64,000 nt of DNA from Bacillales bacterium UBA5026 (GTDB taxonomy: Bacteria; Bacillota_I; Bacilli_A; RF39; UBA660): NCBI GenBank assembly GCA_002416285.1, contig DICM01000034.1, forward strand, positions 274-64,273, written 5' to 3'. Shown here piece after piece: positions 21,237 through 29,148 of the stretch. The position numbers were made by a program, and so were the translations under genes. The notes below the pieces were generated by a model. That model was not told where the DNA came from. It did not search any database and saw only the letters and a program-made list of their open reading frames with translations. Numbering within the stretch: the stretch's first letter is position 1; the number at the start of each line of letters is the position of its first letter.

Positions 21237-21335
21237 AAAAATACCTCTTTTACTATGTTATTTATTATATTAAATGTGGTAGATTTCATTTTGATAATAA
21301 CAGAGAACTATATTAGAAATCAATTTATTTTTATT

Positions 21336-21363
21336 AGTTAACATAATATAGACTAGCGAAACA
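21336..21363 (-). other. attL: hybrid dif-like site (intact XerD arm and central region, degenerate XerC arm)
   Basis: The minus strand reads TGTTTCGCTAG-TCTATA-TTATGTTAACT. The last 17 nt are identical to the dif at 29121-29148, and the XerC arm matches only 6 of 11. Confidence 0.7.
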
Positions 21364-22014: not shown

Positions 22015-22245
22015 TTAAATATCTTTTCTTAATAAATCTTTTACTTGAAACTTTTCATTATTTCCAATGAAATAAATTTTATAACCACATTGATTAGCTA
22101 TGTTTTCTAGAGTTTCAAAATTAATGTCTGTTTTTTCTCTCTCATAATCACTTAAAGTAGTTCTTCCGATATTGACTAATTTACTTAGTTTTTCTTGGCT
22201 TAAATGACTGTTTGCTCGCATTTTTTTTATTGCCTTTCCTATCAT
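22015..22245 (-). CDS. XRE/Cro-CI-family HTH repressor of the prophage
   Basis: LSQEKLSKLVNIGRTTLSDYEREK is a canonical HTH_XRE motif. Divergent from the phage forward operon. Confidence 0.8.
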   Translation of the reverse strand: MIGKAIKKMRANSHLSQEKLSKLVNIGRTTLSDYEREKTDINFETLENIANQCGYKIYFIGNNEKFQVKDLLRKDI

Positions 22246-22274
22246 AAGTCCTCCTTTTCTTTATTGTCGCAAAA

Positions 22275-22337
22275 TTCCACAAAAAATACTTGACTTGTGG
22301 AGAAACTCGGAGTAAAATAATACATATAGATGTGGAG
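22275..22337 (+). promoter_or_regulatory. Forward phage promoter (TTGACT-17-TAAAAT) overlapped by three TGTGGAG-type half-sites
   Basis: -35 at 22290-22295 and -10 at 22313-22318. TTCCACA (22275-22281) is inverted relative to TGTGGAG (22296-22302), and a third TGTGGAG lies at 22331-22337. Confidence 0.6.
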
Positions 22338-22363
22338 TTATTCGACATCAGTAGGAGGAAAAA

Positions 22364-22645
22364 ATGAGAAAAATAAATAGTACAATAATTAATGCAGAAT
22401 TAAAACAAATACCAAACGAGAAAACAGGTGTTGTTAATGAATATACAACGGTAAAATATACCATGGAGCGAGAAAATAGCGATATTGCTGTTGGAGTTGC
22501 GATTATGGAATGCTGGATACCTAAGAATTGTCTTGATGCGATTAAAGGCTACATCATGAAACCAGTTCAAATGGAACTTAGAGAAATCTTTAATGATAAA
22601 GGTTGTAAATTTCGAATTTCAAAAATAAATAACAATGCAATTTAA
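22364..22645 (+). CDS. Prophage protein (93 aa); candidate ssDNA-binding protein by position and size only
   Basis: AGGAGG RBS. It is the first gene of the forward operon, where gene V sits in the circular map (Rep - attP - regulators - this gene - coat genes). Confidence 0.45.
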   Translation: MRKINSTIINAELKQIPNEKTGVVNEYTTVKYTMERENSDIAVGVAIMECWIPKNCLDAIKGYIMKPVQMELREIFNDKGCKFRISKINNNAI

Positions 22646-22880
22646 TGTTTTAGTTACTTACCGAAAACCGAATGGGAAAACACTTACTAGAGAATTGAGT
22701 AGCTGTGATTATAGAGTAGGGCATATCAACTCTTACGGTTGGGAAGTAATTGAGATACAAGTATTTTATCAAGGAAAATATATGCAACTAGAAACGTTTG
22801 AAAGATTACGTTACCAATATGACTATGAACGTCATAAAAAGAAGAGTATATTTTCTAAGTTTTCCAAAAAAAACAAATGA
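22635..22880 (+). CDS. Prophage hypothetical protein (81 aa)
   Basis: Its start overlaps the end of the upstream gene (22635 vs 22645), consistent with translational coupling. No recognisable motif. Confidence 0.45.
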   Translation: MQFNVLVTYRKPNGKTLTRELSSCDYRVGHINSYGWEVIEIQVFYQGKYMQLETFERLRYQYDYERHKKKSIFSKFSKKNK

Positions 22881-23423
22881 TGATAAATGTAATATGGGTG
22901 GTTAATTTTAAATGCTAGTAAAGGTTTGAAATTGAATAAAAATTATAAGTTAGTATTATAGCACTCCAATCTAGAAAATCACACAAGACTTAAATTTAAA
23001 GTACCTACTTACTATACTTTCTTAAAATCTATACAAGATTAGCAAAATACTTCGCTTATAAATAGGGTAAATAATAGGGAATTACATTATTATCAAAACT
23101 AAAAAAGGTTATCACAAAAAATCAGCAAGATATTATGCCGAGAAAATTATTTAAAAAAAGTCGTTTTTGATAAGCTGAAAGGCTAAAAAGATGCGAAACA
23201 TCAGAGGCATACCTCTTGATGATAGCAATCCACTTGTTACATCTTTAAAATCAAAAAAACGGTTACTTTTTTAAAATAAGGAATTGGAATAAATCAACAA
23301 GAAAAAACAAGATAACCTTATCGTTCAGCGAACGGGGTAAAATTTTGCTCAAGGGCTTAGCGAAGAAAAAACTTTCTACAATTTCTATAAGAAAAAGATA
23401 TTTTGAAAAGAGGGGAAAAACTT

Positions 23424-23567
23424 ATGACAGAAGTGCAGGCAACAACATTACTAGAAGAAATTACAACAATGAGAATCTTGCTTCAAGGAGTATGTGGAAT
23501 CTTAATGCTTGTGGTATTAGTAGCTGTAATATATGCCTTCTATAAGTTTTTCAAAATATTCTTTTAA
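23424..23567 (+). CDS. 47-aa coat-like membrane protein (minor or alternative coat)
   Basis: AGAGGGG RBS followed by MTEVQATTLLEEITTMRILLQGVCGILMLVVLVAVIYAFYKFFKIFF. Acidic N-terminus, TM core, basic tail. Missing from the ORF track. Confidence 0.5.
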   Translation: MTEVQATTLLEEITTMRILLQGVCGILMLVVLVAVIYAFYKFFKIFF

Positions 23568-23593
23568 AAAAGAGTGGAAAGGGGTTTTGAAAA

Positions 23594-23761
23594 ATGGAAG
23601 GAACAACTTCAATTTTTGACGGAGCTATCACATCAGCTACATTACAACCTGTTTTAGACGGTATTAAAGAATTACTACCAGTAGTAATTCCAGTAGCAGT
23701 AGGATTCTTAGCATTCCGTAAAGGTTGGTCATTTGTAATGTCAACCGTAAAAGGAGCGTAA
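23594..23761 (+). CDS. 55-aa putative major coat protein (Pf3-like architecture, no signal peptide)
   Basis: MEGTTSIFDGAITSATLQPVLDGIKELLPVVIPVAVGFLAFRKGWSFVMSTVKGA. Acidic N-terminal part, hydrophobic core of about 20 residues, and basic residues (R, K, K) in the C-terminal tail. Missing from the ORF track. Confidence 0.6.
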   Translation: MEGTTSIFDGAITSATLQPVLDGIKELLPVVIPVAVGFLAFRKGWSFVMSTVKGA

Positions 23762-23797
23762 GCTCTTCTTATAATAAAAGAAAGGACGTGAAGAAAA

Positions 23798-25423
23798 ATG
23801 AAAAAATTACTATTTGTAACAATCATTGCCTTCATGTCTTTTTTCTATATAGATAATGTAAACGCAGAAGAGATACAACATTTTACTTTGAATTATGATA
23901 ATCAAGAATTTAATGTTGATATACCTGTTAAATATTTACAAAATAATTATATTGGTACAATGTCTAAAAATAGTTCTACTGGTTCTTATCTTTTTCGATT
24001 ATTTTATGATTTTAATTATGTGGGTTTACGTTATTCAACAAGTGGAACGCAAAAAGATATTTCTTTTTATTTTAAAGATACTTCTGATGCAATAGATTCC
24101 GGTTCTGTAAATGCTTTAATTTATAATTTTACTACTAAAACATTTACAGAAGATTCTGGTGTTTATATTCCACGTTTTGCTTTAAATGATGAAATAACTG
24201 ATAATTATGTTCCCGTTGATTTTTTTATAAAATATGATAATAAAATTTATTTGGATGGGAGAAATATCAATTCTAATTTAACTTATAAAATAAATAATGT
24301 TGATTATAAAAAAGGTGATGAAGTTTTCTTTGGTGGTTCTTCAATAAGATTCGGTATTGTTGACTCAGAAACGGAAGTTATAAATGGAATAACTTATTAT
24401 AAGTCTAAAACAGTTCGTATGACATTGCAAGGAAAAAACAATACGAAATATTATTATGAATATACAACAGATAATGGAGCGAGTTGGATTACATTGTTAC
24501 TTACTCAAAAAGATTATTTTGATATTAAGTTTACTACAAATACAGTTTTGTTAGTAAGAATACGAGAACGTAATACGTTTGATGTGTTAAATGATTATAC
24601 ATTTACACTTTCCGGAATTGCGACTGACGAACTTACTAGTGAATATGAAGAAATTCCTTTAAGAGGGCATGAGGGTATTATTCTCTATGCAAAAAATACT
24701 TATCAAGATTTAATTTCTACAGTATATATGGAAACAGGAAATATCCATGTTACAAAATATTCAAATGGTAAAATTGTACAGCAAATGAGGGATATTGCAG
24801 TAGATTTTCAAGTAACATTAGGTCCACGCGATACAGATTATTATTTAATAAAAAATAATGATACAAGTATTAATACCGTATTACGCGTTTTGAAAGATAA
24901 ATTTGCTTATTATTATTTGAATGACGCGCTTAGTACGATTACAATTGAAAATCCAAATACGGGAGAGGCAGAAGTATTAGGGAGCATTTATGAGAGCGAA
25001 CAATACTATAAAGACCATGTTGAACAGGATTCGGACGTAGTTGAAAACAACTGGTTATTGAAAATCTTAAAAATGGCATTTGTTCCGGACTTAAGCGCGT
25101 TTAATAATTTAGTATCTATGTTTAACCGAAAGTTTGGAATCTTTTCACAGTTGGCAAGTACATTACCGGATTTGTTCCAGTTTGGGGGAGAAGACCCACC
25201 CGAATTTAATATGACAATTTACGGAACTACTGTTAATATTGTTGACTTTTCAGCATTTGAAATTGTACGTACATTCTTACACGGACTCATTCTCGCATTC
25301 GCATGGTATGGATTTATAAGACGTTGTTATGAACGAGCACCAGCATTTATAGGTGGATTCTTTAGCTTTGAACGTGCTGTTGGTGATATTTCTGTACCAA
25401 GTTCAAAAGGGGGTAAAAAATGA
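23798..25423 (+). CDS. Secreted 541-aa protein with a C-terminal membrane anchor (pIII-position adsorption/minor coat candidate)
   Basis: Signal peptide MKKLLFVTIIAFMSFFYIDNVNA/EE and a C-terminal hydrophobic helix LHGLILAFAWYGFIRR. Lies directly downstream of the coat-like genes. Confidence 0.55.
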   Translation: MKKLLFVTIIAFMSFFYIDNVNAEEIQHFTLNYDNQEFNVDIPVKYLQNNYIGTMSKNSSTGSYLFRLFYDFNYVGLRYSTSGTQKDISFYFKDTSDAIDSGSVNALIYNFTTKTFTEDSGVYIPRFALNDEITDNYVPVDFFIKYDNKIYLDGRNINSNLTYKINNVDYKKGDEVFFGGSSIRFGIVDSETEVINGITYYKSKTVRMTLQGKNNTKYYYEYTTDNGASWITLLLTQKDYFDIKFTTNTVLLVRIRERNTFDVLNDYTFTLSGIATDELTSEYEEIPLRGHEGIILYAKNTYQDLISTVYMETGNIHVTKYSNGKIVQQMRDIAVDFQVTLGPRDTDYYLIKNNDTSINTVLRVLKDKFAYYYLNDALSTITIENPNTGEAEVLGSIYESEQYYKDHVEQDSDVVENNWLLKILKMAFVPDLSAFNNLVSMFNRKFGIFSQLASTLPDLFQFGGEDPPEFNMTIYGTTVNIVDFSAFEIVRTFLHGLILAFAWYGFIRRCYERAPAFIGGFFSFERAVGDISVPSSKGGKK

Positions 25424-25674
25424 TAGTAACGATTATTATTAACCTTTTATTAGCACTTCCAACATTTTTACTTTCATTACTTCCGGATAATGTAGTAACT
25501 CTTCCAGATAATGTATTTAATATTATGCATGAAGTATTTTATGGGATTGGTTATGTGTTACCTATGGCTGGACTAGCTTCAATTATGGTAATTTCTACAG
25601 CGCTTATTGGAATGCAAATAACTTGGTCTATTATTTTGAGGATTAAGTCTTTTATACCAACAATGGGGGCATAG
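25420..25674 (+). CDS. 84-aa polytopic membrane protein (pVI position)
   Basis: Overlaps the upstream stop (ATGA). Has 2-3 TM segments. Confidence 0.5.
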   Translation: MIVTIIINLLLALPTFLLSLLPDNVVTLPDNVFNIMHEVFYGIGYVLPMAGLASIMVISTALIGMQITWSIILRIKSFIPTMGA

Positions 25675-25811: not shown

Positions 25812-26657
25812 TTGTTAGTAGGATTTATAGGAGTATTAAAAATGCTCTTTGAATTAATCTTATGGTGTATTAAATGGGTAGGTATTGCACTTTTACCGAT
25901 TGTTATTATGATGATATATTTCTATATTCATTATTATATAAAAGGTTATCGTATGAAACCACGTACTACACCAGTTTATAAAAAACCGTCTTTCTTTAAA
26001 CGGCTTCTTATACAGTTTCCCAAGCGATTTATATTAGACCTCTTTGCACGTGACCCCGACGCATTTACGGATTACGGGGTGCATTTGGTCTGTGGAGAGC
26101 AGGGAAGCGGGAAAACTATGACGGTTGTCTATTTACTTCAAGAATATCAAAAACGGTTTCCTAAAATGAATGTGAAAACGAATTTTAATTATTTGAAACA
26201 AGACGATGAAATAACGCATTGGCGAGATATTGTATTTTCAAATAATGGAATCTATGGAGAAATTGACGTTTTAGACGAAATACAAACGTGGTTTAGTTCT
26301 ATGCAGTCACTCAATTTTCCAGTTGAAATGTTGCAAGAAATATCACAACAACGTAAACAAAGAAAAGCAATTTATGGAACAGCTCAAGTGTTTACAAAAA
26401 TAGGTAAGAGTATTCGGGAACAGACAACCTTTTTGTATCTTCCGATTACAATCGCAGGTTGTCTCACAATATGTCGAAAGTATGCCTTAAGACTTGATTC
26501 CGAGGGTCAGATTAAGGAAAAACATTTAAGACGAACATTTTTCTTTGTTCATACGGAAGAGCTTAGAAATAGCTATGATACGTATAAAAGAATCGAACGT
26601 TTGGCAAAAGACGGTTTTAAAGAGACAATTACAGATAAGATTATAGAAAGTAGGTAG
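25812..26657 (+). CDS. Membrane-anchored P-loop NTPase (pI/Zot-position morphogenesis ATPase candidate)
   Basis: N-terminal TM, Walker A GEQGSGKT, Walker B IDVLDEIQ. TTG start after AGGAGG; an alternative ATG lies at 25842. Confidence 0.6.
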   Translation: MLVGFIGVLKMLFELILWCIKWVGIALLPIVIMMIYFYIHYYIKGYRMKPRTTPVYKKPSFFKRLLIQFPKRFILDLFARDPDAFTDYGVHLVCGEQGSGKTMTVVYLLQEYQKRFPKMNVKTNFNYLKQDDEITHWRDIVFSNNGIYGEIDVLDEIQTWFSSMQSLNFPVEMLQEISQQRKQRKAIYGTAQVFTKIGKSIREQTTFLYLPITIAGCLTICRKYALRLDSEGQIKEKHLRRTFFFVHTEELRNSYDTYKRIERLAKDGFKETITDKIIESR

Positions 26658-27427: not shown

Positions 27428-27625
27428 ATGAAAAAGAATTTAATGCTACAACTTCTTTTAGATTTTCTATTTTTGGCTTTAGCAATCGCAATAATTCTAT
27501 GGCTTAAAAACATGTTTGTAACTATTACACTTTTATTGTATTTTGCTTTCTTACTGTTTGTTGATTTCTGTAATTTTCGGAAAGCAAAGAAGCAAAAATC
27601 GACTGTAGTTGATATAGTTGAGTAA
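27428..27625 (+). CDS. 65-aa membrane protein
   Basis: Two TM segments. Preceded by TGAAAGTAGGTGA. Confidence 0.4.
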   Translation: MKKNLMLQLLLDFLFLALAIAIILWLKNMFVTITLLLYFAFLLFVDFCNFRKAKKQKSTVVDIVE

Positions 27626-27722
27626 TTATACCAGGTCATCAAAGACTAAATACTATACAAAACAAGATAATTTACAGTATAAAAGCGATAAATTAACGTA
27701 TTTAAAAGGACTACAAGGAACA

Positions 27723-27745
27723 CCGGCGCGTCGTGAGACGCCCGG
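27723..27745. other. GC-rich hairpin with a GTGA tetraloop just upstream of the Rep ATG
   Basis: CCGGCGCGTC-GTGA-GACGCCCGG (9 bp plus one bulge) in an otherwise AT-rich context. Confidence 0.55.
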
Positions 27746-27800
27746 ATGTTCTTTACTTGATAGTAGTCTCATATCTCCACACCCCTTAAAAGTTTATTCC

Positions 27801-28748
27801 ATGAAAATAATTGAAACTGGCGATTTTATAGAAGTTTATGATTATAACGATATTAAAACTCGAAAAGATGTAAACTTTGAAAAAATTGAACGAAAAAAAA
27901 TAAAAGGAATTAAACGTAGCTTTGAAACAAAAGAAATAGGAAAGTGGGGGAGTCATTCTACATTATTAGAAAATGGTTCTATAACATTTATTAATTATCA
28001 AAAGATTCAAACGAAGTATGCTTTAGAACATATGAATAATGAAACGTTTGTAATTCGCGATTCTGTTCCAAAAGAAAAGAAAATTGAGCTGAAGAATATT
28101 CTTCGTAGTAAGTTTGCTATGGAACGTATTGTAAAAGCAAATATGAATGAATTTAAAACATTTATCACATTAACATTTGCAGAGAATATCATTAATATTG
28201 ATGAGGCAAATAAAAAGTTCGACACATGGCGAACTCATATAAAAGCATTAAAAAGAGACTTTAAATATGTCTGTGTTCCGGAATTTCAAAAGTTAAGAGA
28301 ACGAAAAACCGGATATGCAGTAGTACATTATCATTTACTAACTAATTTAGACATAATTAAAGACTCGGATATTATTATATCACAAAAAGAATTTACAGAA
28401 AAACAGTTGCTAGAAATGAGCGGACGGCAACGTAGTAAATGTTATGATGTACGTTATTGGAATTATGGCTTTGTTAGAGTCGATACATTAAAAGATATGA
28501 ATGTAGTAGGGTATATATCAAAGTACATGACGAAAGACATAGATAATAGGCTTTGGGGAAAACGACGTTATCTATATAGTCAAAATTTAAAAAAACCTAG
28601 TGTATCATATTTAAACTTTAGTAATATTGAAGATTTTAAACATTATGTAAATAATTTGAATGGCTTTGAATTGAATTTTGAAAAGGTGTATGCTGATAAA
28701 TTCGGACAGGCAATAGAATATAAAGAATACAAGAAAGTAGGCGCTTAA
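27801..28748 (+). CDS. HUH rolling-circle replication initiator (Rep)
   Basis: Motif I FITLTF, motif II (HUH) VVHYHLLTN, motif III GYISKYMTKD. The track ORF extends to a TTG at 27618, so the N-terminus is uncertain. Confidence 0.7.
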   Translation: MKIIETGDFIEVYDYNDIKTRKDVNFEKIERKKIKGIKRSFETKEIGKWGSHSTLLENGSITFINYQKIQTKYALEHMNNETFVIRDSVPKEKKIELKNILRSKFAMERIVKANMNEFKTFITLTFAENIINIDEANKKFDTWRTHIKALKRDFKYVCVPEFQKLRERKTGYAVVHYHLLTNLDIIKDSDIIISQKEFTEKQLLEMSGRQRSKCYDVRYWNYGFVRVDTLKDMNVVGYISKYMTKDIDNRLWGKRRYLYSQNLKKPSVSYLNFSNIEDFKHYVNNLNGFELNFEKVYADKFGQAIEYKEYKKVGA

Positions 28749-29103: not shown

Positions 29104-29120
29104 ATTTAAGAATATATATT

Positions 29121-29148
29121 AGTTAACATAATATAGATTATCGGAAGT
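29121..29148 (-). other. dif: Chromosomal dif site (XerC arm - 6-nt centre - XerD arm), serving as prophage attR
   Basis: The minus strand reads ACTTCCGATAA-TCTATA-TTATGTTAACT. This matches 24 of 28 positions of the B. subtilis dif as I recall it (ACTTCCTAGAA-TATATA-TTATGTAAACT). It lies at the point where the gene-strand bias switches. Confidence 0.8.

Follow-up and report, generated by a model that had tools for sequence, protein, structure and literature searches.

In the Ff phages (M13, fd and f1), the genes for virion and assembly proteins are arranged in the order gVII/gIX, gVIII, gIII, gVI, gI, and the major coat protein, made as a procoat with an AxA cleavage site, is a single helix with an acidic N-terminal part, a hydrophobic segment and a basic C-terminal part. 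The major coat protein of Pseudomonas phage Pf3 (ORF44; M11912) is a leaderless single helix in which an acidic N-terminal part, suited to translocation, is followed by a central hydrophobic segment and a basic C-terminal tail, and its gene directly precedes that of a large virion protein. Propionibacterium phage B5 (AF428260), a Gram-positive filamentous phage of the Paulinoviridae, has the small hydrophobic Orf3 and Orf4 upstream of Orf5, a 57-amino acid (aa) coat-gene candidate that is reportedly the experimentally determined coat, and genes for a ~485-aa protein, a ~90-aa protein and a pI-like protein downstream. In the gut Firmicutes inoviruses designated 'Clade-1' (Ino-01 to Ino-06), Zot is a stand-alone domain and the longest gene comes after that of the major coat (Sugimoto et al. 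2021, PMC8530359). The window analyzed here, a 64,000-nt stretch of contig DICM01000034.1 from Bacillales bacterium UBA5026, contains a 7.8-kb inovirus-like prophage block that holds two small open reading frames (ORFs) of 47 and 55 aa. The 47-aa ORF, the 55-aa ORF and the genes for a 541-aa protein, an 84-aa protein and a Zot/pI-type ATPase follow one another in the prophage in the filamentous-phage order gVII/gIX, gVIII, gIII, gVI, gI (Table 1).

The 55-aa protein is very probably the major coat protein of this prophage, because it belongs to a conserved family, occupies a fixed gene order with pI/Zot, has homologues with AxA leaders, is predicted to form a single helix and has an acidic-N/basic-C layout. 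The assignment stands on architecture, family content and gene order, not on homology to a verified coat. The reading as a whole, in which the 55-aa protein is a leaderless major coat, the 47-aa protein a minor or initiation protein and the competing ORFs are not genes, has in our estimate a probability of roughly 0.78, and the element is best explained as an integrated filamentous phage (order Tubulavirales) in the metagenome-assembled genome (MAG) of a low-GC, spore-forming gut Firmicute. The presence of the small proteins in the virion, the route of insertion and the role of the 47-aa protein are points that we infer.

Both ORFs, and the 55-aa sequence as quoted in the preliminary description, are read directly from the DNA, and each is preceded by the purine-rich ribosome-binding site (RBS) claimed for it, AAAAGAGGGG for the 47-aa ORF and GGAAAGGGG for the 55-aa ORF; relatives have AAAGGAGG at the position matching the latter. 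An in-frame TGA lies at 23588–23590, two codons before the ATG of the 55-aa ORF, which therefore has no N-terminal extension or hidden leader. The 55-aa protein consists of an acidic N-terminal region of 26 residues, a hydrophobic core LLPVVIPVAVGFLAF at approximately residues 27–41 (best 19-mer Kyte-Doolittle value 1.84) and a basic tail RKGWSFVMSTVKGA. Its charges are −3 on the N-side and +3 on the C-side, the positive residues of the tail being Arg42, Lys43 and Lys53; many relatives have four. The corresponding charges of the 47-aa protein are −2 and +2, and its best 19-mer, residues 18–36, has a Kyte-Doolittle value of 2.92. These charges and hydropathy segments agree with the acidic N terminus, hydrophobic helix and basic tail that had been described for both proteins. 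Helix and leader calls were made by hydropathy, motif inspection and AlphaFold2.

A word-indexed search identified seven other close clusters with 57–85% identity to the 55-aa protein, and 21 positions are invariant over the eight clusters. The full search with a hidden Markov model (HMM) of 1.84 billion representatives returned 257 clusters (50% identity) at E ≤ 1e-3, 23 of them at E ≤ 1e-10, so that the family has at least 257 clusters; the family alignment took in 50. Gut Clostridia MAGs, IMG/VR contigs and circular genomes of 5.3–5.8 kb all contain members, which share the core (V/I)L..I..L(L/I)P..(L/I)P.V(V/I)GF(I/L)AFRKG(W/I).F(L/V)... with the end (K/R)GA. A crude classification of the best 150 of the 257 clusters distinguishes three types. 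(i) Short proteins with no leader, like the 55-aa protein, account for at least 66. (ii) At least 19 are proteins of 80–103 aa with a typical n-h-c signal peptide that ends in AxA and is followed by an acidic mature part of ~50 aa; in examples such as P0012, P0013, P0018, P0022 and P0035 the mature part alone aligns, and it aligns to the whole 55-aa protein. (iii) About a quarter are proteins of 130–370 aa with a coat-like segment at the extreme C terminus. The start of the 55-aa protein coincides with the start of the mature part of the leader-bearing members, and therefore the protein appears to be a genuine leaderless coat; this is the strongest argument for the assignment. The leader-bearing member P0062 matches phrog_1646 'major coat protein' (E 4.4e-5), seven members weakly match phrog_2186 'virion structural protein', and one matches Phage_coatGP8 (PF19199) at E 0.053. 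One further member, P0011 (70 aa), has a first ~28 residues that resemble the small upstream protein (MNELEVLNSIYDILL...LITGCIQ), joined to ~42 C-terminal coat residues. This apparent fusion may reflect a deletion between the two neighbouring genes, or else an artefact of assembly.

With family alignments, AlphaFold2 predicts one continuous helix for each protein, at residues 14–54 of the 55-aa protein with a predicted local distance difference test score (pLDDT) of 77 and at residues 3–46 of the 47-aa protein (pLDDT 84.5). A single long helix had been expected at the outset, and the models are consistent with that expectation. In a Foldseek search with the coat model, nothing was found in the PDB at E ≤ 10, and the BFVD returned only unrelated proteins at E > 5; a helix by itself gives such searches no signal. 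In Roux et al. 2019 (PMC6813254), proteins that have 30–90 aa once any signal peptide is removed, and one transmembrane domain, are candidate structural proteins. Both small proteins are of this kind, and the 55-aa protein has no signal peptide, one hydrophobic helix, an acidic N-side and a basic C-side. Its gene lies in a genome with a pI/Zot ATPase and upstream of the minor-coat and pI genes.

By analogy, the 55-aa protein is Pf3-like in design and not in sequence. The two coats share the absence of a leader, a size of ~44–55 aa, a single helix, the charge layout and the position directly before the gene for a large virion protein. The resemblance to a Pf3-type coat that was proposed in the preliminary description is thus one of architecture alone. 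The host here is Gram-positive-type, the N-terminal part to be translocated has ~26 residues as compared with 18 in Pf3, and the family has two invariant prolines in the core. B5 Orf5 is similar in size, core prolines and basic tail, and the gene order of B5 is like that in the window, but in B5 the coat gene is preceded by two tiny ORFs of 32 and 27 aa in place of the single 47-aa ORF. As compared with Ff, the order of the modules and the layout of the coat are shared, and leader-bearing members of the family resemble the Ff procoat, AxA cleavage site included. In contrast to Ff, the coat in the window is leaderless and matches no Pfam model of an Ff or Pf1 coat, the prophage has no secretin (pIV), and its pI is a stand-alone Zot domain. 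The metagenomic inoviruses of gut Firmicutes (Clade-1, bajarodino, porcine 'Inovirus sp.' and the candidate families of PMC6813254) resemble the prophage in their stand-alone Zot, genome size (5–9 kb) and predicted Clostridiales hosts, and in them too the longest (minor coat) gene comes after the coat gene; bajarodino virus 76, however, has a different, leader-bearing coat candidate of 106 aa. Published collections of inovirus coats include 51 major-coat iPFs (Roux et al.) and the InoMCP set (Sugimoto et al.); the comparison with known coats made here covered Pfam, PHROGs, the PDB and the coats or coat candidates of B5, Pf3 and bajarodino virus 76.

The 47-aa protein, MTEVQATTLLEEITTMRILLQGVCGILMLVVLVAVIYAFYKFFKIFF, had also been described as coat-like. 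In a scan of the 450 nt upstream of each coat gene at 15 loci, a homologous ORF of 39–58 aa was found directly upstream of the coat gene in 13. The homologue in the related prophage L004 has 47 aa and 55% identity, that in prophage L011 has 40 aa, and a profile search added proteins of 39–46 aa. Together with the 257 coat clusters, the recurrence in 13 of 15 loci is a pattern beyond chance. The helix has a conserved glycine, and the C-terminal motif is (I/V)Y..YK(F/L)F..FF. When 14 members were compared with Pfam and PHROG, no meaningful match was found, pVII and pIX included. Judged by its sequences, this is a conserved, previously unannotated family that is separate from the coat family. An alternative start, the TTG at 23403 that would give a 54-aa form, was rejected: homologues begin with MT(E/Q) at a conserved ATG, which is also the start that the RBS suits, and public gene calls do not include the 54-aa form.

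The recurrence and design of the 47-aa family bear on a possible exchange of roles, in which the 47-aa protein would be the major coat, or a second one, and the 55-aa protein a minor virion component. The 47-aa protein also has an acidic N terminus, with a strong hydrophobic helix of 23 residues and a Lys-containing tail, its single-helix prediction is the more confident of the two, and across the loci it is nearly as constant as the coat. Against such an exchange, no homologue of the 47-aa protein that was found has a leader, the tail YKFFKIFF is mostly aromatic with two positive charges only, and no member of the family matches any coat family, whereas the 55-aa family has classic procoat-like members and the PHROG link to a major coat. 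The 47-aa ORF also occupies the position upstream of the coat gene that is held by gVII/gIX in Ff and by Orf3/Orf4 in B5, and between the window and L004 the 47-aa protein diverges more than the coat (55% as compared with 85% identity). An exchange or sharing of roles is in our judgment quite unlikely. The 47-aa protein is most likely a minor virion or assembly-initiation protein like those of gVII/gIX rather than a second coat, a candidacy suggested by its size, lack of leader, topology and position; pVII and pIX of Ff are likewise very small, leaderless, single hydrophobic helices encoded directly upstream of the major coat gene. Thus the earlier description of both proteins as coat-like holds very probably for the 55-aa protein, as major coat, and the 47-aa protein belongs to another family. 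Ff has two such proteins of 32–33 aa, whereas in the window and its relatives there is only one such small ORF between the 81-aa gene and the coat gene.

Homologues of the coat gene were compared in the prophages L004 and L011, in seven gut Clostridia/Ruminococcus MAG contigs, in two IMG/VR contigs and in several contigs of 5.3–6.0 kb. L004 sits at the same mnmA-Zip site as the prophage in the window. Terminal overlaps of 141, 30, 30, 141 and 21 nt in L003, L005/L006, L009, L017 and L022, respectively, indicate that these are circular assemblies of 5.3–5.8 kb. The order coat, homologue of the C terminus of the 541-aa protein, homologue of the 84-aa protein and pI is found in all 13 loci with enough downstream sequence, including five circular genomes and two IMG/VR contigs. 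The replication initiator, in contrast, is swapped: the window, L004 and L011 have a PF23343 Rep, and L003, L007 and L009 have a circovirus-type PF02407 Viral_Rep and a helicase. Because the morphogenesis order is kept while the replication module is exchanged, the coat gene is tied to the morphogenesis module.

This linkage speaks against regarding one or both small proteins, instead of as parts of the virion, as small membrane effectors that serve the prophage, for example in superinfection exclusion or as holin-like or toxin-like peptides. Among phage accessory genes, small single-pass membrane peptides are common, weak matches to holin-type PHROGs occur in a few family members (phrog_126, E 0.0042; phrog_689, E 0.015), and a virion role is read here from sequence and gene order. 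Both small genes, however, are strictly linked to the morphogenesis module whichever of the two Rep types is present. In addition, between the repressor and pI genes there is no other ORF that would suit a major coat, the 55-aa ORF is the one match of the coat-core HMM in the whole window, and every inovirus needs a major coat of such size and design. We therefore consider an effector role unlikely and retain the reading of the 55-aa protein as major coat.

The coding strand also bears on this reading. The small ORFs are missing from the program-made ORF list for the window, and the sole cause is its cut-off at 60 aa; the list shows instead a 94-aa ORF on the antisense strand and an out-of-frame 66-aa ORF. 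Between the window and L004, the ratio of nonsynonymous to synonymous changes (pN/pS) is lowest in the sense frames (0.38 and 0.33). Over five other locus groups the sense-frame values are 0.09–0.46, and the sense frame is the lowest of the six in 6/7 comparisons, the exception being one pair with 11 substitutions only. The ranges are 0.13–0.46 for the 47-aa ORF and 0.09–0.46 for the 55-aa ORF. The frame of the 66-aa ORF has a pN/pS of 2.9 in the comparison with L004, and its product is highly basic and of low complexity.

If the 94-aa ORF were the real gene, the small ORFs on the sense strand would be open by chance. It is the longest ORF at the site, its frame is open in all six loci examined, its pN/pS is also below 1 (0.19–0.56), and a weak promoter-like match (9/12) lies upstream on the − strand. 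The low pN/pS of the antisense frame, which is above the sense value in 6/7 comparisons, is explained by third codon positions shared with the coat gene. Antisense stops arise only opposite T/C|TA or T|CA (Tyr, His and Gln contexts), and the coat lacks Tyr and His and contains a single Gln. Across the coat, the antisense frame was free of stops in 47% of synonymous resamplings with the codon usage of the window (P = 0.47), as compared with 6% of ordinary 55-codon stretches. The open frame is thus a by-product of the composition of the coat. Among relatives the antisense ORF varies from 60 to 125 aa with no conserved start, and in the window it overlaps three co-oriented genes and its product has no family match. 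The promoter-like match is set against a scan of 22200–24000 in which promoter-like sites were at chance level (12 as compared with 8.7 ± 2.8 expected); no + strand terminator was found after the coat gene in that scan. Distant homologues, including those with N-terminal signal peptides, are recognizable in the sense frame only. In an exact-sequence look-up in a public gene-call collection, the 47-aa and 55-aa proteins were present (NCBI and Logan sources) and the 94-aa, 66-aa and 54-aa alternatives were absent. A gene on the antisense strand is in consequence very improbable, and both listed ORFs are spurious on the composition simulation, pN/pS and public calls taken together, as had been proposed for the antisense ORF.

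The presence of both exact proteins in public gene calls also contradicts the earlier prediction that automated annotation would miss them. That concern does not apply to the assembly of the window; it applies in part to relatives, in which 39-aa homologues of the 47-aa ORF directly upstream of the coat gene are uncalled on the stored contigs (L003:2834–2953, L005:1368–1487 and L009:2101–2220) and represent missed genes.

Several results weigh against the coat assignment and the reading built on it. The 55-aa protein itself matches no Pfam or PHROG family, and a sequence search of the PDB with the family profile gave a best E of 0.23, from chance matches to solute-binding proteins. It has no significant similarity to an experimentally verified coat, only transitive and weak links through its family. 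Comparison with the Pf3 coat detected no homology (hhalign probability about 1%), and comparison of the 55-aa profile with B5 Orf5 and with the coat candidate of bajarodino virus 76 gave 4.5%, which is not significant, and 0.7%. The hydrophobic core is short, ~15 residues, and its two invariant prolines are unusual for a straight coat helix. The choice between the 55-aa and 47-aa proteins as major coat is made by indirect arguments. Finally, pN/pS separates the two strands only weakly, wobble positions being shared, and the strand call therefore rests instead on distant homologues, gene order, the RBS and the composition simulation.

If the 55-aa protein is the leaderless major coat, it would insert in the cytoplasmic membrane N-out/C-in, probably by way of a host insertase of the YidC/SpoIIIJ type. 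The Pf3 coat inserts through YidC. A Pf3-like insertion is plausible because the 55-aa protein has no leader and the host has a gene for an insertase of the YidC family (PF02096, E 9e-40); both small proteins fit the positive-inside rule for this topology. The acidic 26-residue N terminus would then face outward and the RK...K tail the cytoplasm. The membrane-anchored, stand-alone Zot/pI ATPase would form the assembly site, at which the coat would be stripped from the membrane, with no need for a secretin. There the coat may polymerize as one long helix around the extruding single-stranded DNA, its basic tail facing and neutralizing the DNA. The 47-aa protein, with the same topology, would act at the end of the virion or in the initiation of assembly.

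Table 1. Features of the prophage and of related loci (window positions, unless a locus number is given)
Feature	Position	Strand	Remarks
Direct repeats	21327–21361 and 29112–29146		Flank the prophage; 35 nt, 86% identical, 21-nt identical core, spacing 7,785 bp
XRE repressor	22015–22245	−	PF01381, E 8.7e-13
93-aa and 81-aa small proteins	Between XRE repressor and 47-aa ORF
66-aa ORF	23345–23545	+	TTG start, out of frame, overlaps 47-aa gene; spurious
RBS of 47-aa ORF	23406–23415	+	AAAAGAGGGG, 8 nt before ATG
47-aa ORF	23424–23567	+	Single-helix membrane protein (predicted); ATG 23424, TAA ending 23567
94-aa antisense ORF	23551–23835	−	No RBS; not a gene
RBS of 55-aa ORF	23576–23584	+	GGAAAGGGG, 9 nt before ATG
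55-aa ORF	23594–23761	+	Leaderless major-coat candidate (pVIII analogue); ATG 23594, TAA ending 23761
541-aa secreted protein	23798–25423	+	Signal peptide, C-terminal membrane anchor; pIII-like (adsorption/minor coat) position
84-aa membrane protein	25420–25674	+	pVI-like position; conserved in all related loci
281-aa Zot/pI-type assembly ATPase	25812–26657	+	Stand-alone Zot domain, N-terminal transmembrane helix, P-loop
Rolling-circle Rep	27618–28748		PF23343 REP_ORF2-G2P, E 3.8e-16; phrog_3419
PF02407 Viral_Rep genes	L003:1320–2348, L007:212–1231, L009:399–1406		5.3–6-kb circular relatives
Secreted coat-ended genes	L003:3203–3817, L005:1730–2365, L009:2408–3067		Also ORFs after the coat gene in L014, L015, L017, L021, L022

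The direct repeats that end the prophage are dif-like: in reverse complement they resemble the dif site of a Firmicute. An integrase gene is absent. The 541-aa protein has no Pfam family match, but its C-terminal region is conserved beside the coat gene in related loci. The 281-aa ATPase has weak Pfam matches to Zot and AAA families, and among PHROGs it matches phrog_197 (Zot-like), phrog_1675 (protein I of M13) and also phrog_20922. Its identity is 42% to the protein annotated as Zot in bajarodino virus 76 and 31–36% to the Zots in records of porcine 'Inovirus sp.'. The host MAG has a size of 1.5 Mb and is 72% complete, and a germination-protease-like protein and SpoIIM are encoded among the genes that flank the prophage. 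Neither blastn of the prophage nor tblastn of the coat gave a match in 50,697 deposited phage records. A search with the coat profile of 150 other genomes of the host family (one per genus, ~0.8–1.3 Mb) gave no homologue; within that family the phage lineage occurs sporadically, and its relatives come instead from MAGs of Ruminococcus and other Clostridia.

The small gene pair is an ordinary one for a filamentous virus of a gut Clostridia-type bacterium and leaves the current understanding of filamentous phages unchanged. With the 55-aa protein assigned, the prophage has a named hallmark structural gene, and two false ORFs drop out. Because the structural and assembly module is complete, the element may still make particles. 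The inoviruses of gut Clostridia are known almost only from sequence, and their coats lack curated models; the alignment of the coat family, together with the linked small upstream ORF, could mark such phages for detection and annotation. The leaderless and leader-bearing members within one family constitute a natural test set for signal-peptide independence.

Apart from these genes, the phage is tightly packed except for a gap of ~540 bp (22881–23423) between the 81-aa and 47-aa genes. The gap contains no convincing ORF, promoter and terminator sites on its + strand are at chance level, and there is one terminator-like hairpin on the − strand (23141–23122). On another contig of the same MAG, a stretch of 134 nt (G000:C19:3874–4007, L002) is 70% identical to part of the Rep gene of the prophage (~28158–28291), perhaps as a remnant or as part of another element related to Rep.

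In eight related loci, the gene directly 3′ of the coat gene encodes a secreted protein of ~205–245 aa, and the last 25–35 residues of this protein match the coat-core HMM (E 1e-7 to 7e-3). The prophage in the window has no such gene. Its sequence suggests a minor virion protein whose anchor is a paralogue of the major coat, which would be coat-fusion display in a natural form. Tentatively, and with somewhat less than even odds, the coat family of Clostridia inoviruses may switch between leaderless coats inserted in the Pf3 manner, leader-bearing coats inserted like the Ff procoat, and C-terminal anchors of secreted proteins of ~200–370 aa whose genes come directly after the coat gene, with the 47-aa family serving as a single cap or initiator that replaces the pVII/pIX pair in these phages.

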